Notes: generated by a model not told the origin, from the sequence alone. A stretch of 42,334 nucleotides of DNA from Puniceicoccales bacterium (GCA_031284265.1 JAITAG010000068.1:1-42334); one strand, 5' to 3'. Counted from the stretch's first letter, positions 17,451 to 42,272 are shown. Numbers and translations: made by a program.

Positions 17451-17458
17451 TTTTTCAT

Positions 17459-17463
17459 CCTCC
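17459..17463 (-). promoter_or_regulatory. Shine-Dalgarno (GGAGG) of the giant ORF
   Basis: Plus-strand cctcc is GGAGG on the minus strand, 8 nt upstream of the ATG at 17450. Confidence 0.6.
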
Positions 17464-18780: not shown

Positions 18781-20883
18781 TTAGGTTACGGCAATTCTAC
18801 CCAGAGGTTGTATGGTAATTTCTTCGGTGAGTTCCTGGTGGGAGAGTACCGGCAATTCGTATAACTCTAACTCAATCAACTTGCGGACGTAGCGGCGAAT
18901 ATCCATGGAAGTGAGCAATACGGGACGGTTAGTTTCCTGTGTAAAATCCCCCACTTCTTCCTTTACAGTGGTGACGATTTTTTTCGCCGTATTCGGTTCC
19001 AATGCCAAATAGCTTCCCGCCGAAGTCTGGCGAATGGATTTGCGAATGACATCCTCCGTACCCGGATCCAATAGATAGACTCCCAAAATATTCTGTCCGC
19101 CACTGTACTTGTAACTGATGTAGCGCTTCAAACTTGTTCGCACATAGTCAGCCAATAGAATGGGCTCCTTTTCTTTCTGTCCCCAGTCGATGAGACATTG
19201 CATAATGAGGCGTAGATTGCGAATGGATACGTCTTCCTGAACCAGTCGCTGTAAAACTTCTCCAATCTTTTGTACGGGCAATACGCGCTGTACTTCTTTG
19301 ACCAATTCCGGGAAATTTTTCTCGAAATTTTCTAGAATAAATCGCGTTTCCTGTAATCCGATGAATTCGGAGGCATATTTTTTTAGAATAAATGAAAGGT
19401 GGTAGGTCAAAATTTGAGGCGATGTCATGTAATTGATACTCGCCTTATCCATTTGTGGGATGAGGCTTTTTGCGACCCATAGCGCTGGAATATTGGGTAA
19501 AAATGCCTTTTCTTCCTGATAAGGGATATTTAGAATGCCTAGACTTTCCTTCGTTTCGCGGACCAGTATGCTTCCTTTTAAAATACGCCCCTGGGAAACC
19601 GGTACCTCCTGTAATAGGATTTGATACATCCCATCCGTTAAATTTTCATTGAAACGCAGATGAATTCCGGGAAATGGTACGCCCAGATCGAAATAGAGTG
19701 CCTTTCGAACTTGGATCAATTGGTCATTGAGGACCATCGGGTCCACGGACTCTTCAATGGAAGTCGCCACATCGAGCAATAGCGGTACCGTAACCGAAAA
19801 CTCGCCTTTCTCCTCCTTAAATGTGGGAGCATTCGGCGCGATATCCGAAGGCAATCCGGTATTTTTGGCAACCTTAGTCACCTCACCTCCGCCCTGTGGT
19901 TTTCCCTCCGTTTGCATCAGCGAGCGACCGGTCAAAAGGATGAGCGTACCGATTACGAGAAAGGGAATCTTTGGAAATCCTGGAATGAGCATAAATCCGA
20001 TACTCATGACCCCCGCAATAACCAATGCCTTGGGCCGCGAGAGTAACTGTTTACCGATATCACTGCCGAGTGGTTTCGCATCACTGGAACTTACCCGAGT
20101 TACGATAACACCGGACGTAATGGAAATGAGTAGGGAGGGCAGTGTGGAAACGAGACCGTCGCCGATGGTGAGAATGGCATAGGTCGTGATCGCCTTATCC
20201 ACTGTCATGCCCTTTTGAAAGACACCGATAACGAGTCCAGCAACGATATTAATGGCGGTCATAATCAATCCGGCAATGGTATCGCCCTTGACGAATTTCA
20301 TCGCCCCATCCATGGCACCGTAGAGCTGGTTTTCCTGTTCCAAATCCGTACGTTTTTGCTTAGCCTGTTCCGTATCAATGCTTCCCGCCCGCAGGTCCGC
20401 ATCGATACTCATTTGCTTACCCGGCATCGCATCCAAAGTAAAACGGGCCGATACTTCCGAAACCCGCTCCGCACCCTTCGTGATGACGACGAATTGCACG
20501 ATGAGTAGAATGCCGAAAATAACCGCGCCGACGACAAAGTTTCCTTGGACGACGAAATCGCCGAAGGTGAAGATAATCTCACCGGCATCGGCCGTTAGCA
20601 AAATCATTCGCGTACTGGTAATATTCAGTGCCAGACGGAATAGTGTTGTAAATAGCAAAATACTGGGAAACGTCGATATGCAAAGTACGCGCGGAATATA
20701 CATTGACAGCATCAATAGGCTGATACTCATCGATAAATTGAGCGCCAATAACAGATCGAATAGAAACGTCGGAATGGGCACAATCATCAGCATGATGACG
20801 GCAACAACGACCAACGCTAAAAAGATATCGTTATATCTCGATACCGTTGCCAATAGGCTATTAAATCTCGTGCTAAAGCTCAT
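18781..20883 (-). CDS. sctV: Type III secretion export-gate protein SctV (LcrD/YscV/CdsV; FlhA superfamily)
   Basis: 700 aa with an N-terminal multi-TM region. Hallmark segments are FRLALNITSTRMIL, SARFTLDAMPGKQMSIDADLRAG and MDGAMKFVKGD. The C-terminus SMDIRRYVRKLIE...PVLSHQELT..IQPLGRI closely matches my recollection of Yersinia LcrD, favouring an injectisome over flagellar FlhA. Confidence 0.92.
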   Translation of the reverse strand: MSFSTRFNSLLATVSRYNDIFLALVVVAVIMLMIVPIPTFLFDLLLALNLSMSISLLMLSMYIPRVLCISTFPSILLFTTLFRLALNITSTRMILLTADAGEIIFTFGDFVVQGNFVVGAVIFGILLIVQFVVITKGAERVSEVSARFTLDAMPGKQMSIDADLRAGSIDTEQAKQKRTDLEQENQLYGAMDGAMKFVKGDTIAGLIMTAINIVAGLVIGVFQKGMTVDKAITTYAILTIGDGLVSTLPSLLISITSGVIVTRVSSSDAKPLGSDIGKQLLSRPKALVIAGVMSIGFMLIPGFPKIPFLVIGTLILLTGRSLMQTEGKPQGGGEVTKVAKNTGLPSDIAPNAPTFKEEKGEFSVTVPLLLDVATSIEESVDPMVLNDQLIQVRKALYFDLGVPFPGIHLRFNENLTDGMYQILLQEVPVSQGRILKGSILVRETKESLGILNIPYQEEKAFLPNIPALWVAKSLIPQMDKASINYMTSPQILTYHLSFILKKYASEFIGLQETRFILENFEKNFPELVKEVQRVLPVQKIGEVLQRLVQEDVSIRNLRLIMQCLIDWGQKEKEPILLADYVRTSLKRYISYKYSGGQNILGVYLLDPGTEDVIRKSIRQTSAGSYLALEPNTAKKIVTTVKEEVGDFTQETNRPVLLTSMDIRRYVRKLIELELYELPVLSHQELTEEITIQPLGRIAVT

Positions 20884-21269
20884 AATACTGCCTTTGTTTT
20901 AGATTTTGGACAAGCGATAGCCAGGCGGAGATCTTGTTCCTGCATGCCTAGAAAGTGGGTATAGGCGGAACGAGCTTCTGCGTCCCGTCCCAAAGCCCAT
21001 AAAACTTTACTCTTCAGGACAAAGAATAATTTATCCAATTCCTTTGATTTGGGGAGTGGTTCTGCCGATTGGAGGGCTTGCAATGCCGTATCGGGCGTAT
21101 TCGACTTCAATGCGGCAAAGGCGAGCGAAAGGTTGACGAGTGAATCCTCTGGAAAATATTCCGCGAGAACAAGCGACAGAGCAAACGCATCGTCGAATTT
21201 ATTATAGCGCAAAAAAAGGTAAATGAGAATTTCTAAAAATTCCTTCTGAGAATCATCCATAACATCCAT
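20880..21269 (-). CDS. Small helical-repeat (TPR-like) protein; positional analogue of the T3SS chaperone SctY/YscY
   Basis: 129-aa ORF whose stop overlaps the sctV start (ATGA). It has Ala/Leu-rich helix-pair patterning. In Ysc/Psc loci a TPR protein of about 115 aa (YscY/Pcr4) sits directly upstream of the sctV homologue. The assignment rests on position and composition only. Confidence 0.4.
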   Translation of the reverse strand: MDVMDDSQKEFLEILIYLFLRYNKFDDAFALSLVLAEYFPEDSLVNLSLAFAALKSNTPDTALQALQSAEPLPKSKELDKLFFVLKSKVLWALGRDAEARSAYTHFLGMQEQDLRLAIACPKSKTKAVL

Positions 21270-21278
21270 CCGATTCTC

Positions 21279-21306
21279 AATATAGTGAGGAATAAAAACT
21301 TTTCAA
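21279..21306 (-). promoter_or_regulatory. Candidate sigma70-type promoter of the TPR-like/sctV/giant-ORF operon
   Basis: On the minus strand: TTGAAA, 16 nt, TATATT. The -10 element ends 9 nt before the ATG at 21269, implying a near-leaderless transcript. A paralogous copy lies at 23537-23564. Confidence 0.4.
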
Positions 21307-21348
21307 CTTTTTATTTGTAAAAATAAAAAAACCATTGAAAATAGTTTA

Positions 21349-21382
21349 CTAAAAAAATGGAGATTTTTCATTAAAAATCTCC
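21349..21382 (-). terminator. Rho-independent terminator after family member G
   Basis: 10-bp stem GGAGATTTTT / AAAAATCTCC (21359-21382) with a 4-nt loop, followed on the minus strand by a T-run (ATTTTTTTAG). A near-identical copy lies at 23592-23615. Confidence 0.6.
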
Positions 21383-21438
21383 GATTTTTTATATTTCTTA
21401 CATCTGTTTTTATATTATTTTTACGTCATTGGCAAGCT

Positions 21439-22518
21439 TTAAAACGTTTGATATTCTGGGGTTAAGCAAAAATATGCATCCACAAGAATAGCAATTAAAC
21501 CTCCCGCGACATTTAGTCCGTTACCTCGAGGCAATAAAGAACTCAGGTGCTGAGCACATTTTTGCGATACATCTTGAATAAAAGTACAAAAACTCGCACT
21601 AATAAAACCAATACATATGACACCATTGGCAGCATTATGATGAATAATAGCATTAACGCACTCCCTTACCTTTTGCATTAACGTTTCGCACCACCTCAGC
21701 AAATCTCGGTTTTGTTCTCGTAGCTCAAACTTTTCAGCGGATAATTCCTTTTCTAATGGAGTAAAATTTTCGTCTCCTCCAACTAATTCTTTCTGTAACT
21801 CGGTTTTTCGTTGCTCGAATGTCTTTTGTAGCTCATACATTTTTTGACAAAATCCTTCTACTAACACAATTTCTCGTTGACCAAATTCCTCTATCAACGC
21901 TGCTTTTTGTTGATCAAAATCGGCCTGTAATGCAAAATTTTGTTGAGCAATTTCTGCTTCCAACGCGGCCGTTTGCTGGGTAAACGTTTCTTGCAATGTA
22001 ACTGCTTGTTGGGCGAATGCCGCCTCCAATGCTTCTCTTTGTTCCGGATTGACGGCTAGCCATTCAATGGCTTGTCGGTTAAATTCTTCCATAAACGCTG
22101 CTTTTTGTCGATCAAATTCGGCTTGTAATGTGAGGCTTTGTTGATTAAATTCCTCTATAAATTTAGTTCTTTCTCGTTCAAATTCTTCCAGAAAACTTTT
22201 AAACCAATCAACTATTTGTGATTCGAACTCGTCCAGCAATGATGCCGCTTCTTGTCGAGTAGGTTCACCATCAAGTGATTCGAGTACTTGTTGAGCAAAT
22301 TGCATGTGCAATGCGTCTTCAGATGCTTGGACTTGTTCCAAGGCGCCTTCGAATATTTCAACATCCCCTACACAATCTCCCAAACATGCATTTAGCCGAC
22401 TTTGTTCCTGTTGGAATTTCTCTTGTTTTTCTTGCAATTCCGAAGCGTAACCCCATTGAATCCCTGGTATTTTAGCTATACAGAGCATTCCTAACATAAT
22501 CATTTTTTTCATATCCAT
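21439..22518 (-). CDS. Shared-leader family member G (359 aa): leader, hendecad-repeat body, C-terminal hydrophobic region
   Basis: Leader MDMKKMIMLGMLCIAKIPGIQWGYASE. The body is built of 11-residue repeats (xxxLQxxFxQQ). The C-terminus NGVICIGFISASFCTF...GGLIAILVDAYFCL is hydrophobic. Confidence 0.85.
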   Translation of the reverse strand: MDMKKMIMLGMLCIAKIPGIQWGYASELQEKQEKFQQEQSRLNACLGDCVGDVEIFEGALEQVQASEDALHMQFAQQVLESLDGEPTRQEAASLLDEFESQIVDWFKSFLEEFERERTKFIEEFNQQSLTLQAEFDRQKAAFMEEFNRQAIEWLAVNPEQREALEAAFAQQAVTLQETFTQQTAALEAEIAQQNFALQADFDQQKAALIEEFGQREIVLVEGFCQKMYELQKTFEQRKTELQKELVGGDENFTPLEKELSAEKFELREQNRDLLRWCETLMQKVRECVNAIIHHNAANGVICIGFISASFCTFIQDVSQKCAQHLSSLLPRGNGLNVAGGLIAILVDAYFCLTPEYQTF

Positions 22519-22634
22519 ATCGCTCTTCCCCCTATTTAACCTCTGAATCCCCGCTTAGGAAAACAATGATAATAATAATAAAGCTAAGCGAAAAAATCAG
22601 AAATTTCCAATTAAAATAATGACTTTAATTTTTA

Positions 22635-23507
22635 CTAGAGATTTATCAGCCTATTCAACCAAGACGGAGAGGATGCTGGAACAGACAACGGTTGCGAATC
22701 TCTACATTGTTGCAACTCAGCCAATCGTCGATTGAATTCCTCCTGCAATCTCGCTTCTTCTCGAATTAATTCTGTTTCTATTTCTTTTATCCGCTGAGTG
22801 TATATTCTTTGTTGTTCCCTATTTTGATCGCAGCGATCTACTTGCAATTTCTTTTTCTGTCGATCAAATTCTGCCGATATTTTATCGCTTTGCCGTTTGA
22901 ATTCCATTCGAAGTGTGTTTTTTCCTCGATCAAATTTTTCTTGTCTCTCGATTATTCCTTGATCAAATATTTTCTGCAATGCAGTTGCTTCTCGATTGAA
23001 TTCTCCCTGTAATGCATACATATGTTGGTTGAATTCTTTTTGTATTTCCGCTAGTGATTCATCCCCGTGTTCCGATAATGCTTTGGATGTTTGGTTGAAT
23101 TTTTCTTGCAATACAGCTGCCCGTTGATTAAAATCCTCATATAAGTTCTTTTTTGCGCGTTCAAACCATTCATCTAATTCAGCTACGCAGTAATTGAATT
23201 CTCCTTGCAATGCTGTTTCATATTCAGCAAATTTTTCTTGCAATGCAGCGTCTTTTTGGGTGAACTCTTCCCGCAATGCAGTTTGTTTTTGAAAGTATAT
23301 TATTGGCAATTCAACATCCTGAAAAGTTGCATCCCTTTGCAATTCAACATATCTTTGTGCGAATTCTTCTCGCAACATAGCTCGCCGCCGTTCAAACTCT
23401 TCACGCAACGCCGCTAATTCACCTTCACACGAAGCTTGACAATGTTGAATTTCCGGTACCGTGCTCGTACAAAGCAAACCCAATATGATCATTTTTTTTA
23501 TATCCAC
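22635..23507 (-). CDS. Shared-leader family member F (290 aa): leader plus hendecad-repeat body
   Basis: Leader (M)DIKKMIILGLLCTSTVPEIQHCQAS. The start codon is GTG at 23507, preceded by AAGGAG with an 8-nt spacer. The body has repeats such as ALREEFTQKDA / ALQEKFAEYET / ALQGEFNYCVA. Confidence 0.85.
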   Translation of the reverse strand: MDIKKMIILGLLCTSTVPEIQHCQASCEGELAALREEFERRRAMLREEFAQRYVELQRDATFQDVELPIIYFQKQTALREEFTQKDAALQEKFAEYETALQGEFNYCVAELDEWFERAKKNLYEDFNQRAAVLQEKFNQTSKALSEHGDESLAEIQKEFNQHMYALQGEFNREATALQKIFDQGIIERQEKFDRGKNTLRMEFKRQSDKISAEFDRQKKKLQVDRCDQNREQQRIYTQRIKEIETELIREEARLQEEFNRRLAELQQCRDSQPLSVPASSPSWLNRLINL

Positions 23508-23536
23508 AAACTCATCTCCTTAAAATTTCAATTCTA

Positions 23537-23564
23537 AATATAATGAGGAATAGATATTTTGCAA
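23537..23564 (-). promoter_or_regulatory. Candidate sigma70-type promoter for family members F and G
   Basis: On the minus strand: TTGCAA, 16 nt, TATATT. It lies in a segment paralogous to 21273-21390. Confidence 0.4.
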
Positions 23565-23580
23565 ATTTTTTTTATAAAAT

Positions 23581-23615
23581 ACTAAAAAACCGGAGATTTT
23601 TCATTAAAAATCCCC
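23581..23615 (-). terminator. Rho-independent terminator after family member E
   Basis: Stem GGGGATTTTT / AAAAATCTCC (23592-23615) with a 4-nt loop, followed on the minus strand by GGTTTTTTAG. Confidence 0.55.
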
Positions 23616-23739
23616 GATTCTTGTTAAAAAATTGATTAATAATGATTTTGGCTCTTACCAAGACTTCAATTTTACATTAATAACCTTTCACGAATTGGTC
23701 ATTCCTATAATTGGCGATAAAAGCTTTACAACTTTTTGT

Positions 23740-24234
23740 TCACCGGAGTGAAGCCTGCAGCTGAGGAAGCGGAAGCGCGCACTCAAACTTTTTCAAAAAG
23801 CATTTATAGCAATTCAGAATCTGCGTACCGCTTTTATCGAGTTCATTTCGGAGCTCTATCTTTTCTTCCAGCGATAACCTGCCATTAAGCGCATTTCTCG
23901 CTGTGTGCAAAGCTTCCGGATGCGCATTGAAGGCATCATAGATTACCAATGCACTTGCCAATAGGGCTGCGCCCAGGGCTTGTCCATCCGTAGGATTATT
24001 ACCAACGAGCTTATACGTATTATTGGCTATTCCTTGAATTAGACCCGGCAACCACGCGCAATTATTCTTCGACAAACAGTCAAGGAATGATGGAAAAAAA
24101 TTATTTCCATAATCATTGACTGGACTGTATCCAACCACTGGATAAGTTGCATCTTCTTCCCTATTAATTGTAGCCGATCCACCGAGTGATAATCCGCATA
24201 ATATCCCCACGCTAATTATTTTTTTTATATCCAT
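23740..24234 (-). CDS. Shared-leader family member E (164 aa)
   Basis: The track ORF starts at a TTG (24291). The family-conserved ATG GAT ATA AAA AAA start is at 24234, behind AAAGGAAAAGAT. Leader MDIKKIISVGILCGLSLGGSATI. Confidence 0.75.
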   Translation of the reverse strand: MDIKKIISVGILCGLSLGGSATINREEDATYPVVGYSPVNDYGNNFFPSFLDCLSKNNCAWLPGLIQGIANNTYKLVGNNPTDGQALGAALLASALVIYDAFNAHPEALHTARNALNGRLSLEEKIELRNELDKSGTQILNCYKCFLKKFECALPLPQLQASLR

Positions 24235-24316
24235 ATCTTTTCCTTTATTGTATGATTTTAACCAATTCGACAATCCTTTCGAACGTTGCAACTTAAAAAG
24301 TCAATGCGCTCGTCGC

Positions 24317-25144
24317 TTAAGGAGTTGCTTGTGTAGCCTCTTGAGCAGCATTAAACAGGGATTTGCCTGAAGCAATGGCCTGTGTAAACCACGTCCCAAA
24401 AACTAACGCAGAAGCTTTCAAGTGGCCTCCCAAATTCAAGAAGCCTCCCTTTACACAATTAAGCCAATTCAAGGCATTAGAAATATTTTTCATGAACAGA
24501 GTTATACCATTCGCACGGCCATACACGCCCCCATAGTAAAGAGGCAGACCAATAAAATGACACAAAACTGCACTCCCAATAACACCACCAATAGCCAGCT
24601 TGTGCCGTCCTAAGAATTCGGTTAAGATTTCGGCTTTTTTGCTTAAGAAGGAGCGTTTTTGCTCTAATTTTTCTAATGTTGCTTGACGTTCTTTGATTCC
24701 TTCTTCTAAATTTCTGTGCTCTTCAGTAAACATTTGTCGCAAATGTTCGAGTGTGCCTGTGATTTCTTCTCTAGTAAAAACTTCACACTCACGAACTCTT
24801 TTTCCCAATTGCATGTATTCACTTCCTATTGTACCGAATACATCTTTCATTATTTGATTTAATTCTTCACAAGTTCTTGCATTGCCAATGGAATCTTGTG
24901 CCTTTCTTAAAAAATTTTCCAGATCGGTTTCAAACTGGCTAATAAGTCTGCCTGCCTCTACCTGTCTTCTGTTCTCTTTCAGATTTTCGATTTGTCTTAG
25001 TGCTGCATTTCTAGCTCGTGCCTCAGCACTTCCAGTTTTTGATCTAGCACTTCCTGTTTTTCCTGATGCATTGCAACCATTATACGCTCCAATTGTTCCG
25101 ATTGCACCGAGCAATCCCAATATGATCATTTTCTTTGTATCCAT
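24317..25144 (-). CDS. Shared-leader family member D (275 aa): leader, helical body, Gly-rich hydrophobic C-terminal region
   Basis: Leader MDTKKMIILGLLGAIGTIGAYNGCNAS. The C-terminal region LAIGGVIGSAVLCHFIGLPLYYGGVYG...ASALVFGTWFTQAIASG is hydrophobic. Confidence 0.85.
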   Translation of the reverse strand: MDTKKMIILGLLGAIGTIGAYNGCNASGKTGSARSKTGSAEARARNAALRQIENLKENRRQVEAGRLISQFETDLENFLRKAQDSIGNARTCEELNQIMKDVFGTIGSEYMQLGKRVRECEVFTREEITGTLEHLRQMFTEEHRNLEEGIKERQATLEKLEQKRSFLSKKAEILTEFLGRHKLAIGGVIGSAVLCHFIGLPLYYGGVYGRANGITLFMKNISNALNWLNCVKGGFLNLGGHLKASALVFGTWFTQAIASGKSLFNAAQEATQATP

Positions 25145-25178
25145 ATCTTTTTCTTTCCTTTAATATCGTTAAATATCG

Positions 25179-26003
25179 TTAATAAACTGTTATCTCCGGT
25201 GGAAGGGATGTTCCGTAAGTTGGATTGTCGTTCAAAGCCTTATATTGTCTATCCGCTGCGACAGAAAGCTCATTTATGCGATCTTGGACTAATCTCCTGC
25301 ATGCTTCCAGTCTTACTTCTTCTGCTGCTGCTACTTGGTCGAATGTTTCTCTCCGCGCTTCAAGTTGCGATATAGCATAAGAGAATTGCCTTTCTTCGTA
25401 GCCGAATTCCTCGCGTTGCTGATTTAATTTTTCGGATTCTGTATGTAAATCATGGTATTCTTGAGCAAGATGTATGATCTGATTATTAAAATCATCAATT
25501 TGACAATTAAATTCTTCATTCAACTCTCCAAATATTAATTGTACTGTTCGTTCCACCTGTTCTTTACAATCTATAAATCCTCGGAATTTCGCATCCAAAT
25601 AAGCATCCAAATTTTGAAATCGGGAATATAATTCTTGCAATTCTGCATCTATTGCTGCTCGTATGTTAGCATCTATAAATTCCGGAGGTTGATTTTCCAA
25701 AAAACCCCACAAATTTTGAGATCGGCAACATAATTCTTTCCGTTCTGTTTGTATTTCTTTCCGTTCTCCATTGTCTTCTATTCCATTCAATTGATCTTCT
25801 AAAGTGTTCTCAAAATCCCAAAGCATCCGAGTCAATTGACCCTCCCGAACATCCACAAAATTCTGAAGATGATAATATAATTTTTCCAATTCTGCTTGTT
25901 CTTTGGGAGGCAACTCTATCTCTTCCGAAGCGTAACTCCATTGAATCCCAAACGTTCCGGTTGCACCAAGCAACCCCAATGTAATCATTTTTTTTATATC
26001 CAT
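25179..26003 (-). CDS. Shared-leader family member C (274 aa), acidic helical body
   Basis: Leader MDIKKMITLGLLGATGTFGIQWSYASE. The 5' UTR is conserved with member B (GTCAAATAAAGAAAG). Confidence 0.85.
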   Translation of the reverse strand: MDIKKMITLGLLGATGTFGIQWSYASEEIELPPKEQAELEKLYYHLQNFVDVREGQLTRMLWDFENTLEDQLNGIEDNGERKEIQTERKELCCRSQNLWGFLENQPPEFIDANIRAAIDAELQELYSRFQNLDAYLDAKFRGFIDCKEQVERTVQLIFGELNEEFNCQIDDFNNQIIHLAQEYHDLHTESEKLNQQREEFGYEERQFSYAISQLEARRETFDQVAAAEEVRLEACRRLVQDRINELSVAADRQYKALNDNPTYGTSLPPEITVY

Positions 26004-26048
26004 ATTTTTTTACTTTCTTTATTTGACAAAAAATTCGACTCTTCTCCA

Positions 26049-26615
26049 CTATCCTTGCAGGATTTCGTTGAGCTGACATATACGCGTGATGCAATCTTGA
26101 AACATACCTAACCACTGATTAATCTCATTGACATTAGTAGGATAACAAATAGTAGAATCCTTCGCAATATTTTTTATTTCATTGATTAATGTTAAGTATC
26201 GATCATGTAGACACATGCATTCCATTCGCAATTCTGCTATAGCCCCTGGTACTTCTGCAGTATTTTGATATACAGATTCCGATGCTCGTGTACCCTGCTG
26301 TTGCAATGCACTTCTTGCCCCTTTCAATGTTGCGCATATCAGAGACATATCACCTGAGCTTCTGACTTCATCCCAAATACCACAAAGTTGATTCCTAAAT
26401 TCGCTTAGCAGTCTAATTTGAGCACTAGCTACTGCCTGTTCACATTCTCCTTGAAAGTAGTCTTTACGTACTTGAAAACCAGAGAACGCTCTTTCTAATT
26501 CTTGATAAAAGTTATAACAGTTGCTCAACGTTTCTCCTGAAGCATGCCACCATTGAATTCCAAACGTTCCGGTTACACCAAGCAACCCCAACATGATCAT
26601 TTTTTTAATATCCAT
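26049..26615 (-). CDS. Shared-leader family member B (188 aa)
   Basis: The track ORF extends to 26714, but the family-conserved ATG GAT ATT AAA AAA ATG start is at 26615. That start also removes the overlap with member A. Leader MDIKKMIMLGLLGVTGTFGIQWWHASGE. Confidence 0.8.
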   Translation of the reverse strand: MDIKKMIMLGLLGVTGTFGIQWWHASGETLSNCYNFYQELERAFSGFQVRKDYFQGECEQAVASAQIRLLSEFRNQLCGIWDEVRSSGDMSLICATLKGARSALQQQGTRASESVYQNTAEVPGAIAELRMECMCLHDRYLTLINEIKNIAKDSTICYPTNVNEINQWLGMFQDCITRICQLNEILQG

Positions 26616-26670
26616 ATCTTTTCCTTTCTTTATTTGACAGAAAAACTTAGACTTCTTTCCTTTGATTAGC

Positions 26671-27255
26671 CTAGGGCTGCGGTAATAAATTGAAACGCGC
26701 GACACAATTTTCAAGCATCTCTAACAATTCTTCAATGTCAGTAACATTCAAAAAACGAATAGCAGGACTGTTAGCAATTTCTTCCATGTCCGCATTTAAG
26801 CATTCGTATTGCCCTCGTAGCCCTCGGTATTGCTGCGAAAATTCTAACATAAAATCAGTCATGGCGTTAAAATCCATTTGATCTACAGCTCCCAATAATT
26901 GCCGCTTTTGTTGTTGAAATTCAAATATTTTTCGTTCAATTGCTTCCAGTTCCGCAATAAGATGTCTATTATTTATTGGGTCTAAAGTGTTCCAATTGTC
27001 TAATATCCATTTCCAATATTTATCTTGCAACATAGTTATTCCTTGATCAAGGAATAGTCCTAATGAATTTTTCAATGCTTGAAAATTTGAAAACTCCTCT
27101 TCTAGCCTATGATAATGTTTCGAACATTCTTCCAATCTGGTCTTTATCGCTTCGTAGTCTTGGCTCGAATCCATAAATAAAGCATGCCCCCATTGAATTC
27201 CAAATGTTCCGGTTACACCAAGCAACTCCAACATGATTATTTTTTTAATATCCAT
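26671..27255 (-). CDS. Shared-leader family member A (194 aa)
   Basis: Leader MDIKKIIMLELLGVTGTFGIQWGHALF. The first 75 nt or so are nearly identical to members B and C. Confidence 0.85.
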   Translation of the reverse strand: MDIKKIIMLELLGVTGTFGIQWGHALFMDSSQDYEAIKTRLEECSKHYHRLEEEFSNFQALKNSLGLFLDQGITMLQDKYWKWILDNWNTLDPINNRHLIAELEAIERKIFEFQQQKRQLLGAVDQMDFNAMTDFMLEFSQQYRGLRGQYECLNADMEEIANSPAIRFLNVTDIEELLEMLENCVARFNLLPQP

Positions 27256-27273
27256 ATTTTTATTTATGTTATT

Positions 27274-27301
27274 TTTATATTAATTATAAAACTTCTGTCA
27301 A
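27274..27301 (-). promoter_or_regulatory. Candidate sigma70-type promoter for family members A to E
   Basis: On the minus strand: TTGACA (27301-27296), 16 nt, TATAAA (27279-27274), about 18 nt upstream of the ATG at 27255. Confidence 0.35.
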
Positions 27302-27355
27302 AGCTAAAATTTTTTATAAAAAACCATCCATTGACGTTTAAATATTCACTTACGC

Positions 27356-28195
27356 TCACTTAAAATCTCTAATCGCACAAGCCCCAAAAGTTGGTTCAAC
27401 TTGCTTAGCATATTCCTTTAATACCCAATCGCCCTTATCGAGACAATAACTTTGCTTTCCAACCTTTAGAGTTCCCGGTTGTCCAACCTGAACATAACCT
27501 TCTGCTTTCATATTTTCCGGGTTACTTCTTTTATTAAAATCCGATCTGCAGTCACCCAGTTTAAGTATATGCCACGAAGGTATGTGTTCACATGAACTTT
27601 CAAATGTAAAAACTATCGGTTTTGGTGCCGGTGTTGGCGTTGCCGTTGGCGTTGGCGTCGGACGCGGCGTTGGCGTCGGCATTGCTGTTGGCGTTGGCGT
27701 CGGACGCGGCGTTGGTGAAAACGTTACCGTTGCCGTTGGCATTGGCGTCGGCGTTGCCATTGCTGTTGGCGTTAGCACCGGACGCGGCGTTGGTGAAAAC
27801 GTTACCGTTGCCGTTGGCATTGGCGTCGGCGTTACCATTGCTGTTGGCGTTGGCACCGGTGAGGACGTCGAATTGGTGTCCCCAAAACTGGCTCCATCTA
27901 GTCGTCCCAACGGTGCTTCTCTATTACGAAGAAGGAACATTCCTATTCCTATTCCTGCCGCTACTGCTGCGAACGCTGCAATTTTTGCACAAATTCCACA
28001 CCTCGATTGAGAATCCGATCGAGAATCCTGCTCATTTTCGTCATCAAAGTCGCTACCACGTCCGGGAGATCGGGTCTGTTGCCTACTATATACCACAAGA
28101 TCATCATTGGTTGTGCTACCTTGAATAGCATTAAACATACTTCCCGCTATCATAATAGCTGTTATACTACTTCTTTCTACTCGTTTTATACTCAT
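27356..28195 (-). CDS. Membrane-anchored Pro/Thr-repeat protein with a Cys-containing C-terminal domain (279 aa)
   Basis: It has an acidic N-terminal segment and a TM-like stretch (CGICAKIAAFAAVAAGIGIGMFLL). These are followed by about 100 aa of PTPT/PMPT repeats and a C-terminal domain of about 85 aa with 4 Cys. Confidence 0.8.
   Translation of the reverse strand: MSIKRVERSSITAIMIAGSMFNAIQGSTTNDDLVVYSRQQTRSPGRGSDFDDENEQDSRSDSQSRCGICAKIAAFAAVAAGIGIGMFLLRNREAPLGRLDGASFGDTNSTSSPVPTPTAMVTPTPMPTATVTFSPTPRPVLTPTAMATPTPMPTATVTFSPTPRPTPTPTAMPTPTPRPTPTPTATPTPAPKPIVFTFESSCEHIPSWHILKLGDCRSDFNKRSNPENMKAEGYVQVGQPGTLKVGKQSYCLDKGDWVLKEYAKQVEPTFGACAIRDFK
27702..27857. repeat. 2 x 78-nt tandem repeat (26-aa unit) inside the Pro/Thr-repeat gene
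   Basis: The unit ggacgcggcgttggtgaaaacgttaccgttgccgttggcattggcgtcggcgtt... recurs at 27702 and 27780 with 2-3 differences. Degenerate gttggcgt(t/c)gg units flank it on the left. Confidence 0.85.
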
Positions 28196-28222
28196 TATAA
28201 TCCTTCAAGATTTTGTTAATTA

Positions 28223-29017
28223 TTATTTAGTTATTTTTTTATAATATATTATATAAATATTTTTTTTATATAAAATAAAAAGATAAGCCAATCCTTCCTT
28301 CCATCTATCATTCAATTCTCTTAAATGTTTTCGAACATTGCCATCGGAAAAGAGTCCTCCGAAAATCGTTTCACATTTATGGTTATTATAAATATCAAGC
28401 CGGTTGAAAAAGTTTTTAAATCCACCAGGTAATTTTCCTAAAAAATTTCCCGTGTAGATATCATCGATAACAAAGACAGGAATTTTTTCCGTAGAAGAAA
28501 TCTTCTGAAATAAAGAAGATTTATCTTTCACTATTATCATCTTATCTTTTTCAACATATCGTTCTTGAATAACTTTGTCTCGAGGGTTTTCCAGCCAACC
28601 TGTCATAAGGCCTTTGGGATCCAAAGTTCCCTCCGAGGAGGATTCATTCTTATCACATGCTAAGCAAACTAATGCGACAATTGAGGATAATGTCTCTTCC
28701 AAGGATATTCGTCCTCCAGAAATTTCCTTTCCCCAATAATGATAAATATCCAGGCTCGATGGATCGCAACCAAGGTCAGTACATAATTTTTTTATCCAAC
28801 TTTGAATATCTTTACTTTCATTTTCTACGCTTAATTTCCGCCTGAAAAGTTTATGACATTTATTCATGTCCACATTTCGTTGCTTCGCATAGATTTCACA
28901 TTGACTTAATTCAGCATAGCAGGAATACGGCGCATTGCCCATAATGATTGCAACCATTATACCTATCTGTGAAGTTTTCATATCCATCTTGGATATTAAT
29001 TTATATAATTTTCCCAT
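28223..29017 (-). CDS. Hypothetical protein (264 aa; alternative ATG at 28987 gives MDMKTSQIGIMVAIIMGNAPYSCYA...)
   Basis: Long ORF with a hydrophobic N-terminus after MDMK. The ATGGATATGAAAA start resembles the family start. No domain recognised. Confidence 0.7.
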   Translation of the reverse strand: MGKLYKLISKMDMKTSQIGIMVAIIMGNAPYSCYAELSQCEIYAKQRNVDMNKCHKLFRRKLSVENESKDIQSWIKKLCTDLGCDPSSLDIYHYWGKEISGGRISLEETLSSIVALVCLACDKNESSSEGTLDPKGLMTGWLENPRDKVIQERYVEKDKMIIVKDKSSLFQKISSTEKIPVFVIDDIYTGNFLGKLPGGFKNFFNRLDIYNNHKCETIFGGLFSDGNVRKHLRELNDRWKEGLAYLFILYKKNIYIIYYKKITK

Positions 29018-39004: not shown

Positions 39005-39082
39005 TGGCGTCCCGTATGGGATTCGAACCCATGTTGCAGGAATGAAAATCCTGTGTCCTAGACCAGACTAGACGAACGGGAC
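39005..39082 (-). tRNA. tRNA-Glu (anticodon TTC), CCA encoded
   Basis: Reverse complement is GTCCCGTTCGTCTAGTCTGGTCTAGGACACAGGATTTTCATTCCTGCAACATGGGTTCGAATCCCATACGGGACGCCA. The anticodon loop is TTTTCAT. Confidence 0.85.
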
Positions 39083-39162: not shown

Positions 39163-39528
39163 ATGGAAAGCTTTGGTGAGCCTAAAGTGAAAAGCAATAA
39201 TCTCTGGCAAACTTTAGAACAACAGATTCGAGAAAATGGCATAGAAATTGATCGGCCCAAAGGAAAAGCACACCCTCGCTTTCCCAGGTTGATTTACCCA
39301 ATTGATTACGGCTATATTCCCCATACGAGATCGGCGGACGGCGAAGGTATCGATCTGTTTTTAGGAACATCCGAAATAAAGCAAATTGTAGGTTTGATTT
39401 GTACGTTTGATGCGGTAAAAAAAGATTCTGAAATTAAAATTCTTTATGCCTGTCTAGAAAAAGAAATCCAAACAGCAGTGACTATGTTGTCCCATCCGCC
39501 GATGTATGCCTTACTTGTCCGCCGTTAA
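39163..39528 (+). CDS. Short, divergent family-I inorganic-pyrophosphatase-like protein (121 aa)
   Basis: YPIDYGYIPHTRSADGEGIDLFLG aligns with E. coli Ppa [23 protein letters not shown]. The protein is much shorter than a canonical Ppa, and the DGDPVD acidic motif is altered. Confidence 0.5.
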   Translation: MESFGEPKVKSNNLWQTLEQQIRENGIEIDRPKGKAHPRFPRLIYPIDYGYIPHTRSADGEGIDLFLGTSEIKQIVGLICTFDAVKKDSEIKILYACLEKEIQTAVTMLSHPPMYALLVRR

Positions 39529-39534
39529 AAACCT

Positions 39535-40075
39535 TCCGCGAGGTTCTGTCCGTACCCAACAAGGAAGCCTGCCAGAGGGCTCTGCCCTCTGGACTCCCCA
39601 AGGAGTCACGGACTCCTTGACCTTATTTTGCGGCCCAGCCGGCGAAAGTTTCGCCCGGCTGGGCCGCAGAGGGCGAAATTCTTATTTTCCTTTGGGCTTT
39701 CTCAGGCCCGCCCGCGGCATCGCCCGTGGAGCGGCTGGAAATATAATTCACTGACCGAGCCGATGCGCGACGCGCATCAACTCGGCCCAAAATGGTTAAA
39801 ATAGTTAGCCCAGCCCGCGGCTTCGCCGCGGGCTGGGCCTCTAGGGCCCATTCGGGCTTTCCATCTGGCATCGCCGGATGGAAAGCCCGCAACCCCGATC
39901 CAGGGGGTGGACCCCCTGGCGGGAGTCCAGAGGGCAGAGCCCTCTGGAAAGCACCCCTGGCGGGGATTCTAAGGACGCGTAGCCCTTAGGCAAATATCTC
40001 CTGGAAAGGAGCCCTTGGGCAACTGCCACAGAGCTCCTGCCCGGCGCTTCACGCCGGGCAGGTTAATTTTCTTTT
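39535..40075 (+). repeat. GC-rich multi-hairpin array A (at least 10 distinct perfect or near-perfect hairpins)
   Basis: Hairpins read directly: 39572-39592, 39599-39619, 39630-39667, 39755-39785, 39808-39838 (14 bp), 39854-39888 (16 bp) and 39900-39919. Further hairpins lie at 39927-39947, about 39969-39989, and 40036-40062. The composition contrasts sharply with the AT-rich flanks. Confidence 0.9.
40036..40075 (+). terminator. Rho-independent terminator (last hairpin of array A)
   Basis: 11-bp stem CCTGCCCGGCG / CGCCGGGCAGG with loop CTTCA, followed by TTAATTTTCTTTT. It lies between convergent genes. Confidence 0.6.
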
Positions 40076-40103
40076 GCCCTTCAGGCCTTTAGCTAGCTTA
40101 GAG

Positions 40104-40787
40104 CTATTTTTGCTCACTCGAAACTATGCGCGATATATTTCCAAACCAATCGCAAATTTTTGGGAATATAAAACTTCCACCGACTAGCGCAAGTATTGTC
40201 TTAGGATTTGTTGTCACGAGATTTGCGCCAGCCTTGGTCGCTATCTTTAAAAGATCCCAAGTACATTTCAGCATTACCGGTCCCACATTTGTCAATGCCC
40301 ATTTGCTGCCATTCCACGTCAAATGTTTGACTCTTCTCATTGTTTTTTGCACACTGGAACTATATTCAGGATCACAAATACTCCTTTTTATTTCTTCGAA
40401 TGAATAAGCATCGATGGAGAAAAATTTTGCTTTTTGCAGTATTTTTCTATTCAGGGTTTTTCCTTCTTCGAAAAACACACAATACTTTTCCTCAAACACA
40501 AGGCAACATGATGTCTTGGAACTTTTTAATACCAGAATTTTTCCCGATTGCAATCGTTTCAATAAATGTAATCGAACTTTTTCTTTCATTTTATTTTCCA
40601 TAATCTGGGCAATAACATCGAACATTATATCCGAATCAAGCTCTTTAACGTTTTCGGCTCTACGATCAAATCCCGATATCGGAAGATTTGAATTTCCTTC
40701 CGTGGTATAGAAACAACTTGCTGAACCAACGGCAGATACGGCAACACTTGCCATCAATAATAATTCTAATTTTTTCATTTTATCCAT
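40104..40787 (-). CDS. Hypothetical secreted protein (about 227 aa from ATG 40787)
   Basis: The track ORF begins at a TTG (40838). The ATG at 40787 gives MDKMKKLELLLMASVAVSAVGSASCFY, which is signal-peptide-like. Confidence 0.65.
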   Translation of the reverse strand: MDKMKKLELLLMASVAVSAVGSASCFYTTEGNSNLPISGFDRRAENVKELDSDIMFDVIAQIMENKMKEKVRLHLLKRLQSGKILVLKSSKTSCCLVFEEKYCVFFEEGKTLNRKILQKAKFFSIDAYSFEEIKRSICDPEYSSSVQKTMRRVKHLTWNGSKWALTNVGPVMLKCTWDLLKIATKAGANLVTTNPKTILALVGGSFIFPKICDWFGNISRIVSSEQK

Positions 40788-40918
40788 AATTTTCCATTGT
40801 TGATACAAGCCAATCGCACTTGTTTCTGTTTTTGTCAAGTAAAAAATAAGAAAACTTCACAGAAATACTCTTCTATGAAAAACAGAGAAATGAAAACATG
40901 AAAACTATCTGCAAGCGT

Positions 40919-41191
40919 CTATATTTTCACCGATATCTCCTTGAGATTACACCCATTACAAGCTTCACACTGGGCAATAGTACAATCCATGGAAAATTTA
41001 GTTTGGTCTTCCAGCCATAGGATACGTTCAATAAATGGCTTCTTTAAAATTTCATATAACGGGCAATCTTCCGGAAGATTTTTTTCCGATATCAACATCA
41101 GCTTCGCCATTTTCTCTACCCGTATTTCTGATTCTTCAACCTCATGTTGATTCTGTTGATCCTCTTGTCTCATACCTTTTTTTTGTTTCAT
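40919..41191 (-). CDS. Small hypothetical protein (90 aa), acidic N-terminus, C-terminal Cys cluster (C-x5-C-x2-C-x2-C)
   Basis: ORF in the same orientation as its neighbours. Cluster CTIAQCEACNGC. No family recognised. Confidence 0.5.
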   Translation of the reverse strand: MKQKKGMRQEDQQNQHEVEESEIRVEKMAKLMLISEKNLPEDCPLYEILKKPFIERILWLEDQTKFSMDCTIAQCEACNGCNLKEISVKI

Positions 41192-41266
41192 GCCTCTAAA
41201 TTGGTATTTCTAATGCTTCTGACAATGCGATTACGTGAAAAATGTGATTTTGATAAAACTTTAACA

Positions 41267-41941
41267 CTATTCCCCGATACCTACGCTACCTTCGTCCTCC
41301 ATTGAGTTTAAATAAATGATAAGCAAAATTATTCCTTCCCGAACATCAAATTCTACCCGTTCCGCTATCGTGCGATTAAAACAAGAGGTATATCCAGGAA
41401 AATAGAGCTCCTGATTTTCCAATTCCCAGCGTAATCCATACGTATTGATTTTTCCAGAAGACATACCCAATAGTGATAATTTCGTTCCTACGGGAAGATT
41501 TAATGCCAAATGATTGCGTATCGCAAAACATAGATTTGGTGATATGTAACCGATTGAATCCGTTTGCGCTAAAATACCTACGTTATTCAAAATATGATCA
41601 ATATATCCACCGTTGATACCGAGAATGATCGATGGCGATAGATGATTTTCCCGGACAAATTTTAGCGCCTTTTGAAAGTCTGAGGACGATTGATCTTTGA
41701 TTACAATTTTCTTTGTTTTTTCCGCAATTGGTTTCTTTATACTATCCCAATCGCCGATGACGACGTCCGCTGCAATGCCTTTCTGGAAAAGTAAATTTGA
41801 AGCTCCATCCGCGGCAATAATAGGTAAAGCGAAATGCGAAAAAAAATCTCTTCTCGGCAACGTTCCGCTTAAACAAACCAACGAGCGATAAATCCCTAGC
41901 GATGGCAGCAAGGCCAAGAATTTTTTATCCTCATCGAGCAT
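41267..41941 (-). CDS. Thiamine pyrophosphokinase
   Basis: AADGASN, VIGDWDS, DQSSSDFQKAL and GINGGYIDH correspond to the TPK motifs ADGGAN, GDxDS, DQDxTDxxKAL and GGRxDH. The track start at 42028 is a TTG lying in GC-rich element B, so I prefer the ATG at 41941. Confidence 0.8.
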   Translation of the reverse strand: MLDEDKKFLALLPSLGIYRSLVCLSGTLPRRDFFSHFALPIIAADGASNLLFQKGIAADVVIGDWDSIKKPIAEKTKKIVIKDQSSSDFQKALKFVRENHLSPSIILGINGGYIDHILNNVGILAQTDSIGYISPNLCFAIRNHLALNLPVGTKLSLLGMSSGKINTYGLRWELENQELYFPGYTSCFNRTIAERVEFDVREGIILLIIYLNSMEDEGSVGIGE

Positions 41942-42024
41942 CTTAGTGGGGTAGATTAAACTTAAACATCGAATTGCAAACTCTAAGGGCTGCTCGCCAT
42001 TAGAATCTTCGCCAGGGGATGTTT

Positions 42025-42272
42025 CCAAGGGCTACGCGCCCTTGGATCCCCGCCAGGGGGGCTTTCCAGAGGGCTCTGCCCTCTGGACTCCCGCCAGGGG
42101 ATCCATCCCCTGGACCGGGGTTGCGGGCTTTTCACCGGGCGATGCCCGGTGGCAGGCCCGAAGGGGCCCTAAAGGCCCCGCCCGCGGCTTCGCCGCGGGC
42201 AGGGCAACTTTTTTTAATAAGACTATTTTTTTGCCGAGTCGATGTGTGTTACACATCGACTCGGCCAGTGAA
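42025..42272 (-). repeat. GC-rich multi-hairpin element B: inverted, diverged copy of the array A core (39747-39990)
   Basis: By eye, the reverse complement aligns module for module with 39747-39990. The shared string cccgcaacccc(g/a)(g/t)tccagggg..tgga..cccctggcgggagtccagagggcagagccctctggaaagc is nearly identical in both copies. Confidence 0.9.

Follow-up and report, generated by a model that had tools for sequence, protein, structure and literature searches.

How does an AT-rich genome come to carry, directly behind the stop codon of a gene, more than half a kilobase of GC-rich hairpins, and to what family of repeats do these hairpins belong? The question is raised by a 42,334-nt stretch of DNA from a Puniceicoccales bacterium (JAITAG010000068.1), referred to below as the window. 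Within it, the first-pass annotation had described a series of at least 10 hairpins behind a PPase-like gene, resembling REP/BIME elements in kind and position and not recognisable as any described family. With a probability of roughly 0.6, this array (array 1) and a second, inverted one (array 2) are copies of a lineage-specific, multi-copy, REP/BIME-like mosaic repeat of termite-gut Puniceicoccales, which would be copied at the DNA level through hairpins and would probably terminate or stabilise transcripts.

The array itself is as striking as first described. Its GC content is 61% (39528-40088; likewise 0.61 for 39501-40000) against a background of 40% (window mean, 0.398), and it is thus far more GC-rich than the genome that harbours it. 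Folded as RNA, array 1 reaches a minimum free energy of -330 kcal/mol, compared with -230 +/- 6.4 for dinucleotide shuffles (z = -15.6), and folded as DNA it reaches -182.5 (z = -15.4). About 12 stem-loops, imperfect stems included, are found between 39572 and 40062, and every hairpin originally quoted lies where it had been placed. A search of the whole window for perfect GC-rich hairpins with a stem of at least 7 bp returns 12, all 12 of them within array 1 or array 2. Apart from the two arrays, the window has a single long GC-rich patch (27608-27884), a coding tandem repeat unrelated to them. The two genes around array 1, the PPase-like gene (+) and an ORF at 40104-40787 (-), converge upon it. 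The features of both arrays are collected in Table 1.

Table 1. Arrays, hairpin modules and flanking genes in the window (positions counted from its first nucleotide)
Feature	Position	Strand	Composition and basis
PPase-like small ORF	39163-39528	+	Pfam Pyrophosphatase, E = 3.5e-5; stop codon directly before array 1
Array 1, whole	39529-40090		M8-M7-M6, degenerate stretch, M9, core M5-M1, two small hairpins, terminator-like hairpin; from GC content, fold z and Puniceicoccales homology
M8, outermost module	39572-39598	+	CCAGAGGGC-TCT-GCCCTCTGG, tail ACTCCC; perfect 9-bp stem
M7	39599-39619	+	CAAGGAGTC-ACG-GACTCCTTG, then ACCTTATTTT; terminator-like
M6, long hairpin	39629-39668	+	TGCGGCCCAGCCGG..CCGGCTGGGCCGCA; inverted repeat, 14 bp at 100%
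Degenerate M3/M5-like remnant (tentative)	39692-39736	+	GGGCTTTCTCAGGCCCGCCCGCGGCATCGCCCGTGGAGCGGC; direct repeat, 39704-39724 86% identical to 39807-39827
M9	39755-39785	+	CCGAGCCGATGCGCG-A-CGCGCATCAACTCGG; inverted repeat
Core unit W1	39806-39990	+	nhmmer E = 3.9e-25 against core model; alignments
M5 of W1	39808-39838	+	GCCCAGCCCGCGGC-TTC-GCCGCGGGCTGGGC; 14 bp, perfect
M4 of W1	about 39839-39852	+	
M3 of W1	39853-39889	+	CGGGCTTTCCATCTGGC-ATC-GCCGGATGGAAAGCCCG; 17 bp, 94%
M2 of W1	39900-39919	+	CCAGGGGG-TGGA-CCCCCTGG
M8 inserted in W1	39924-39948	+	11-nt direct repeats CCCCTGGCGGG on both sides (39913-39923, 39954-39964)
M1 of W1	39969-39989	+	
Two small imperfect hairpins	40001-40038	+	CTCCTGGAAAGGAG; AGGAGCCCTTGGGCA/TGCCACAGAGCTCCT; inverted repeat, 15 nt at 80%
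Terminator-like hairpin with T-rich run	40036-40075 (hairpin 40036-40062)	+	CCTGCCCGGCG-CTTCA-CGCCGGGCAGG, run TTAATTTTCT; passes terminator scan
Three-gene block between inverted arrays	40104-41941	-	227-aa ORF, 90-aa ORF, thiamin pyrophosphokinase (224 aa)
Array 2	41983-42270	-	M9 42265-42233, A/T spacer, W2, degenerate M1-like hairpin 42004-41984; 66% GC, fold z = -10.6
Core unit W2	42208-42025	-	M5, M4, M3, M2, same M8 insertion, M1; nhmmer E = 9.3e-27

The hairpins are unlike one another, as had been recognised, but they are not an unordered collection: a composite of about 260 nt in a fixed order, M8-M7-M6-spacer-M5-M4-M3-M2-M1 in the orientation of array 1, is the repeat unit. In the consensus of its first part, M8 reads CCAGAGGGC-TCT-GCCCTCTGG with the tail ACTCCCG, M7 reads CAAGGAGTC-loop-GACTCCTTG, and M6 reads GCGGCC..CATGCGAAA-TTTCGCATG..GGCCGC. 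In the core, M5 is GCCCCGCCCGCGGC-GAA/TTC-GCCGCGGGCGGGGC, M4 is GGCC/GGCC, M3 is GGCCGGTACCACGGGC-loop-GCCCGTGGTACCGGCC, M2 is CCAGGGGAT-GG-ATCCCCTGG, and M1 is CTAAGGGC-GCGCA-GCCCTTAG. M8 occurs three times in the window, where no copy is expected. The M8-M7-M6 part of array 1 is 93-98% identical to arrays of the MAGs Gsp477_bin70 and Ct408_bin149, and in alignments the M6 stem covaries, reading GCGGCCAAACCATGCG...CGCATGGTTTGGCCGC in related genomes. M9 has a homologue at 42233-42265; among the sequences examined it is found only in the genome of the window and is absent at all other loci. Array 2, which lies 2 kb away and does not figure in the first-pass annotation, is inverted relative to array 1. 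The core units W1 and W2 are 86% identical over 188 nt, and the edge of array 2 lies about 45 nt upstream of the start codon of the thiamin pyrophosphokinase gene (start taken from the Logan contig L203).

The host is placed in Puniceicoccales by MutY encoded in the window, which is 66% identical to that of Po218_bin25, a termite-gut Puniceicoccales MAG. MutY, MGMT and a DNA-alkylation repair gene beside the array match this MAG at 58-67% identity and in synteny, and the other best hits are all to Opitutia (Verrucomicrobiota). Other products encoded in the window are an FHIPEP export gate and a protein of at least 5,820 aa, alongside a series of paralogous ORFs without a known family, a set of features that fits a host-associated bacterium.

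The distribution of the composite unit is narrow. A profile of the M5-M1 core matches only the window and loci of termite-gut Puniceicoccales, and has no match in 78 other Opitutia loci (1.3 Mb) or in loci of other phyla. When the 24-mer across the M2|M1 junction is scanned exactly against 185,579 species genomes (one each), it is found in 58 stretches, all of them in five MAGs, and all five are termite-gut Puniceicoccales (Gsp477_bin70, Ct408_bin149, Cc175_bin33, Nc350_bin186 and Pcl387_bin18). The copy number is high, with at least 84 core hits in 219 kb of Ct408_bin149 and at least 41 in 116 kb of Gsp477_bin70; arrays account for 5-10% of the bases in the examined parts of these two MAGs, which are related, small and AT-rich, a share that is biased upward because the loci were fetched via the repeat. 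One locus of Gsp477_bin70 (L059) opens with three head-to-tail units of 257 nt. Scans of JGI metagenomes with the M2-M1 24-mer and with an M8-M7 25-mer gave 0 matches each. The M8 22-mer has 0 matches in 2.9 million viral contigs and megablast of array 1 against plasmids and phages gave no match, so that these collections hold no sign of a plasmid or phage vehicle. A translated array ORF matches nothing in a set of 5.8 billion proteins, and thus nothing points to array copies inserted in frame into proteins or called as ORFs.

The stems of the unit are well kept. Across 53 near-full copies, Watson-Crick or wobble pairing holds in 98% of pair cells, a proportion that drops to 38-51% when the partner columns are slid. 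Two-sided changes are seen in 12 of 43 pairs; column shuffles give 2.8 +/- 0.9, and 0 of 500 attain as many. These significant compensatory changes, together with the preserved order of the helices and the very strong fold z-scores of arrays 1 and 2, speak for a structured RNA, in which case the 260-nt unit would be a multi-copy ncRNA gene or a cis-regulatory RNA functioning via its ordered helices. So do the sequence identity of 60-77% that the unit retains between genomes with orthologous proteins of only about 60-67% identity, and the G.T mismatches, which on the forward strand slightly outnumber A.C mismatches (24 vs 13). That the unit is such an RNA is nevertheless unlikely. The 3-nt loop of M5 is GAA in some copies and TTC in others; this flip is the product of inversion of a DNA palindrome, for which it is neutral, and is unexpected for a conserved RNA loop. 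With respect to genes whose 3' end faces the array, the core is co-directional in 46 cases and opposite in 47, and therefore lacks the strand polarity that an RNA gene or a 3'-UTR element of fixed orientation should show. Moreover, the unit is present in dozens of copies per genome, with head-to-tail tandems, truncated units and modules present or absent; it has no match in Rfam, and the promoter scan yields no signal above shuffles.

The variation among copies follows the genome. Within a MAG, copies are 83-98% identical, while the copies of the window share 59-77% with those of other genomes. At pair 59-93 of M3, 31 copies have U-A and 20 have G-C; on alignment rows judged by eye, without a script tally, the U-A copies are those of Ct408_bin149 and the G-C copies those of Gsp477_bin70, and the variant tracks the genome even where an array follows or precedes an orthologous gene. 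Likeness within genomes, combined with genome-specific variants at orthologous sites, indicates that the family evolves in concert, copying or conversion at the DNA level homogenising the copies. Single modules vary as well. At the M2|M1 junction, W1 and W2 have in common an M8 insertion of 41 nt, which is lacking in the 51 other copies, and copies of Gsp477_bin70 carry another hairpin, GCAAGGGGAAGGATTCCCCTTGC, at the same junction; insertions at this place are bordered by direct repeats of 7-11 nt (CCCCTGGCGGG or CCCTGGC). Homogenisation, junction insertions and differing occupancy together call for a DNA-level process that adds or removes single modules and copies or converts units across loci.

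Long ORFs contain none of the 89 arrays, of which 58 are at a contig or locus end. Where both flanks are visible (n = 28), 12 arrays occupy tandem, 8 convergent and 8 divergent spacers, compared with 166, 43 and 38 among adjacent gene pairs of the background. The placement between convergent genes, originally likened to that of REP/BIME elements, is therefore true of array 1 and is no rule of the family, which uses tandem and divergent spacers too, in either orientation. A survey of copy number, orientation and context, as proposed with the first description, thus returns a composite that recurs dozens of times in related genomes, is intergenic and has no orientation bias. Such breadth bears on the view that the hairpins are ordinary terminators or attenuators, evolved locally and neither mobile nor homogenised. 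Array 1 does lie between convergent genes, and three members with T-runs pass a terminator scan (39599-39619, +; 39839-39807, -; 40036-40062, +), the last of which had been taken for a terminator from the outset. However, the number of sites that the scan detects, 4, does not exceed that in shuffles (4.5 +/- 2.4), most modules have no T-run, and array 2 is upstream of the thiamin pyrophosphokinase start codon. The same ordered modules are also shared by many unrelated loci, among them divergent spacers that lie 5' of genes, and genome-specific shared variants cannot arise locus by locus. Purely local origin is largely refuted by these family-wide data and is distinctly unlikely.

At least nine orthologous spacers, with flanking proteins 76-95% identical, are occupied in two species, in a sampling that is biased towards arrays. 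Arrays at such shared sites could reflect slow turnover and a local function instead of mobility. In the syntenic locus of Po218_bin25, arrays are found after MGMT and beside tRNA-Glu, where the window has none. The association of arrays with tRNA genes is suggestive.

The 27-nt inverted pair that had been noticed within array 1 (39572-39598 and 39921-39947) is real, and it forms part of a longer pairing of 44 nt with 84% complementarity (39555-39598 with 39921-39964). A pair of this length could be taken for the ends of a classical DDE-transposase MITE of 410 bp, and at locus L003 the modules M8-M7-M6-M7'-M8' likewise make a large symmetric palindrome. Such an origin is very improbable. The pair is explained by module M8 being present twice, one copy inserted at the M2|M1 junction, and this second M8 is an insertion private to the copies of the window genome; the unit boundaries in relatives differ from the paired M8 copies, and the ends of the unit, M8 and M1, are not mutually inverted. 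The inverted pair has no target-site duplication, the inspected junctions between array and flank have no conserved duplication, and no transposase family is seen near the arrays.

In an independent assembly, the Logan contig L203 (SRR14710909, 2,117 nt) contains the three inter-array genes with array sequence at both ends and breaks in both arrays, and a second Logan contig (L012) breaks within a duplicated tRNA-Glu. The arrays are thus physically linked to their AT-rich flanks, and they behave as assembly repeats. That array 1 is an assembly chimera or a GC-rich foreign contaminant, for which the sharp GC jump at its edge and the identity of one module to GC-rich sequences of Clostridia, Desulfovibrio and Magnetococcales might be adduced, is scarcely tenable, given that the independent assembly joins both arrays to the AT-rich genes between them, that the same composite is embedded in AT-rich contigs of five further MAGs, which come from different termite samples, and that the two copies of the window have a common private insertion.

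Judged by Rfam, by literature sequence searches and by REP tags, the element appears to match no described family, as the first-pass annotation had supposed. At gathering and at E-value thresholds, Rfam recognises three tRNAs only in the window, where the best sub-threshold match of the arrays is 23 bits against cut-offs of 40-114 bits, and it recognises nothing in eight related loci. A full-text search of the available literature with ten diagnostic oligomers of the element gave no match. The arrays also differ from CRISPRs, in which direct repeats are identical and alternate with unique spacers of similar length: their own direct repeats are two-copy partial matches, and the tandems at L044, L053 and L059 repeat the whole period, 'spacers' included. 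What the element does possess is the character of REPs and BIMEs, namely high-copy, short, imperfect palindromes that are extragenic only and clustered into mosaics.

In RAYT-associated REPs, the palindrome carries the tetranucleotide GT[AG]G on the 5' side of its foot (PMC6006769, PMC3733652). Neither this tag nor its complement C[CT]AC is found beside the stem in any of the 12 perfect hairpins on either strand, and GTAG occurs only inside the loop and arm of M1. REPs of the CGTC super-family, which 'apparently lack a dedicated transposase', have a CGTC (or TGTC/CCTC) tag, an 8-9-bp stem opening with A-T pairs, a 4-5-nt loop and a CCA tail (PMC3733652). The stems of the present element open with C/G, its loops are mostly 3 nt, and its tails are ACTCCC, ACCCC or AATCCC; CGTC precedes M8 in only three loci among the matches listed (L045, L108 and L115). 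The element is outside the defined REP/RAYT and CGTC families, because their defining tags were looked for and are not present. REP-type elements as such are not foreign to the class, since GTAG REPs are abundant in Opitutus terrae, which belongs to the same class as the host of the window (Di Nocera et al., 2013; PMC3733652).

In a REP/RAYT (REPtron) system, the repeats flank the gene of a cognate Y1/HUH transposase, the RAYT. A search for a RAYT-type or other associated transposase, recommended with the first description, came back empty. Pfam finds no transposase domain, Y1_Tnp (RAYT-type) included, in the ORFs of the window. RAYTs are usually single-copy; phmmer with E. coli RayT, a single insensitive query applied to MAG fractions only, had no hit among 12,037 ORFs (2.47 Mb). 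Proteins that recur next to arrays (122, then 68 loci) are only ABC ATPases, two-component proteins, HAD proteins, ClpB and prepilin-like paralogues, all common families, with no transposase among them.

E. coli BIMEs are clusters of the REP palindromes Y, Z1 and Z2 with short linker motifs (PMC6006769, PMC3733652). The Puniceicoccales element resembles them as an extragenic, multi-copy mosaic of imperfect palindromes and linkers, single or in tandem, often at the 3' ends of genes and without copies in coding sequence, and both are probably transcript-end structures. Whereas BIMEs alternate two or three REP types, the Puniceicoccales unit consists of about eight unlike hairpins in fixed order; its stems of 8-17 bp are longer and have a GC content far above that of the genome, it has no GT[AG]G foot, and no RAYT gene was found. 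Pseudomonas REPINs, REP doublets that are vertically inherited and evolve as populations within a genome, are likewise non-coding, non-autonomous and hairpin-forming, with copies that are closer within than between genomes and that persist across species, partly at orthologous sites. A REPIN is two inverted copies of one REP, in contrast to a string of unlike hairpins for which no cognate single-copy RAYT was identified. In yeast mitochondria, GC clusters are GC-rich palindromic modules in AT-rich spacers and are thought to spread at the DNA level. They differ from the present element in being organellar, single and short, without ordered eight-hairpin units, and the two have no sequence relation. 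CGTC REPs and the mosaic intergenic clusters of Neisseria and Wolbachia, a super-family apparently without a dedicated transposase, resemble the present element in that they have short conserved tails by the stem, cross phyla and form large clusters in some genomes (PMC3733652). Unlike CGTC REPs, the Puniceicoccales modules open with G/C pairs, and the tail of M8 is AC(T/A)CCCG.

The most unusual aspect of the array finding is that one module, M8, is shared across phyla. As an exact 22-mer, CCAGAGGGCTCTGCCCTCTGGACTCCC is identical in more than 113 loci of at least five phyla among the matches listed, while, by our own estimate, chance would yield less than one match in 596 Gb, even with a GC content of 65%. 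Its hosts in Bacillota are MAGs of Clostridia and Oscillospirales and at least 12 Paenibacillus genomes, closed chromosomes included; the others are Magnetococcales, Desulfovibrionaceae, Acetobacteraceae and other Alphaproteobacteria, a Myxococcales MAG, a Holosporaceae MAG and Puniceicoccales MAGs. The identity reaches 35-37 nt and takes in the tail and the start of the following hairpin (CCAGAGGGCTCTGCCCTCTGGACTCCCGCCAGGGG). In these genomes, M8 also lies within runs of other GC-rich hairpins, at times arranged in tandem units of 28, 45 or 62 nt, and often immediately 3' of a stop codon. It is typically the outermost hairpin with its tail directed into the array, and 77 copies point away from the nearest gene and 34 toward it. 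An A-N-N-CCC tail is carried by 20-27% of neighbouring hairpins, compared with about 3% of background positions for each flank. A common tail motif was considered as a criterion of the family and dropped, this motif being enriched and not universal.

As to the sharing of M8 across phyla, a tiny element may have spread horizontally, or a conserved enzyme may recognise the module. A further step is possible but doubtful: M8 with its tail (CCAGAGGGC-TCT-GCCCTCTGG-AC[T/A]CCCG) might mark a third, undescribed super-family of tagged palindromic elements in Bacillota, Pseudomonadota, Desulfobacterota, Myxococcota and Verrucomicrobiota, recognised by a widespread ssDNA (or RNA) enzyme, with the Puniceicoccales super-element of 260 nt having been built by serial insertion beside CCTGG-type stem ends and now propagating as a unit.

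If arrays 1 and 2 are copies of a REP/BIME-like mosaic repeat, the unit would be copied or converted via single-stranded hairpin intermediates. The process could depend on an enzyme of the HUH/Y1 (RAYT-like) type acting in trans, or it could consist in template switching during replication or in gene conversion. The GC content of 61-67% in a genome of 40% GC would follow from biased conversion or from selection favouring stable stems. In a predicted further role, resident hairpins probably terminate transcription in both directions or protect 3' ends; those of the window would serve the PPase-like gene and the 227-aa ORF by means of M7 with its T-run, M5 with its T-run (-) and the terminator-like hairpin at 40036-40075.

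The arrays break short-read assemblies of this lineage, most of them lying at contig ends, which matters for the quality of its MAGs. The exact hairpin and tail of 27-30 nt found across phyla offers a handle for phyletic profiling toward the recognising enzyme. For the repeats themselves, the finding means that palindromes of the REP/BIME style can form a long multi-hairpin unit of fixed order that evolves in concert without the GTAG tag, and a tag-less unit of this kind bears on how tag-less REP families such as the CGTC class get copied.

At least nine Paenibacillus genomes share an identical copy of the hairpin M8, typically the outermost module of the arrays, in the same orthologous spacer. 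Other GC-rich hairpins are present within about 240 nt of this spacer in locus L041. No Rfam family matches the Paenibacillus M8 spacer with its hairpins. The gene downstream in L041 probably encodes a HAD/Cof-type hydrolase, as judged by eye from its N-terminus. MAGs of Clostridia and Myxococcales contain M8 as perfect tandem repeats whose period is 62, 45 or 28 nt; the smallest unit, of 28 nt, consists of GGGAGT, the hairpin and C. In a Holosporaceae MAG, M8 is followed by ACTCCCGCA, just as it is in the Puniceicoccales arrays of termite guts; either the contig was mis-binned or the sequence has moved horizontally between co-resident symbionts.

In eight loci of Clostridia MAGs, the hairpin arrays start directly after a TAA or TGA triplet or even contain it. 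This triplet is read as the putative stop codon of the upstream gene, and such a start could result from an insertion-site preference or from maximal filling of short spacers. All copies of another module, M2, start with CCAGG and finish with CCTGG, both CCWGG sites of the Dcm/Vsr type, and module insertions fall directly after this CCTGG.

A scan of 60 Puniceicoccales loci gave 24 tRNA genes, of which about 9 lie near an array (roughly within 200 nt, by eye). The two tRNA-Glu genes of the window flank a 208-aa ORF without known family, and in the termite-gut MAG Ct408_bin149 the same two genes are adjacent and followed by a hairpin array.

Features in the window and in matched loci (L-numbers) of other genomes
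Feature	Location	Strand	Remark
Stop-free reading frame	window 3-17462	-	at least 5,820 codons; open at window start
FHIPEP (SctV/FlhA-type) export-gate gene	window 18781-20883	-	
Run of ~8 ORFs	within window 18781-29017	-	~180-360 aa each; after FHIPEP gene
Tandem repeat, GGCGTT/GGCGTC-type units	window 27608-27884		61% GC; inside ORF 27356-28195 (-)
tRNA-Glu genes (ctc and ttc)	window 38155-38229, 39005-39082	-	
M2 copies	window 39900-39919, 42094-42113		
tRNA-Glu pair and array, Ct408_bin149	L239 3973-4337		
M8 spacer, Paenibacillus	L041 520-770		orthologous: L023, L026, L028, L065, L083, L101, L102, L121
M8 tandem repeats	L044 7529-7696; L053 3925-4002; L016; L030; L077		
M8 then ACTCCCGCA	L001 1-40		contig end, MAG Ncb351_bin22
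Arrays starting at TAA/TGA	L013, L014, L020, L021, L047, L087, L107, L118		Clostridia MAGs

The GC-rich tandem repeat of the window was considered as a relative of the hairpin arrays and rejected, being coding and unrelated. The reading frame at the window start, whose codon count is a lower bound because the frame continues past that start, encodes a giant protein of unknown kind, with no Pfam match in its first 1,000 residues. No Pfam family was assigned to any ORF of the run beside the export-gate gene, at least five of which have a KKMI.LGLL-like N-terminus in common. The ORFs of this run possibly encode secreted effectors of a host-associated bacterium.
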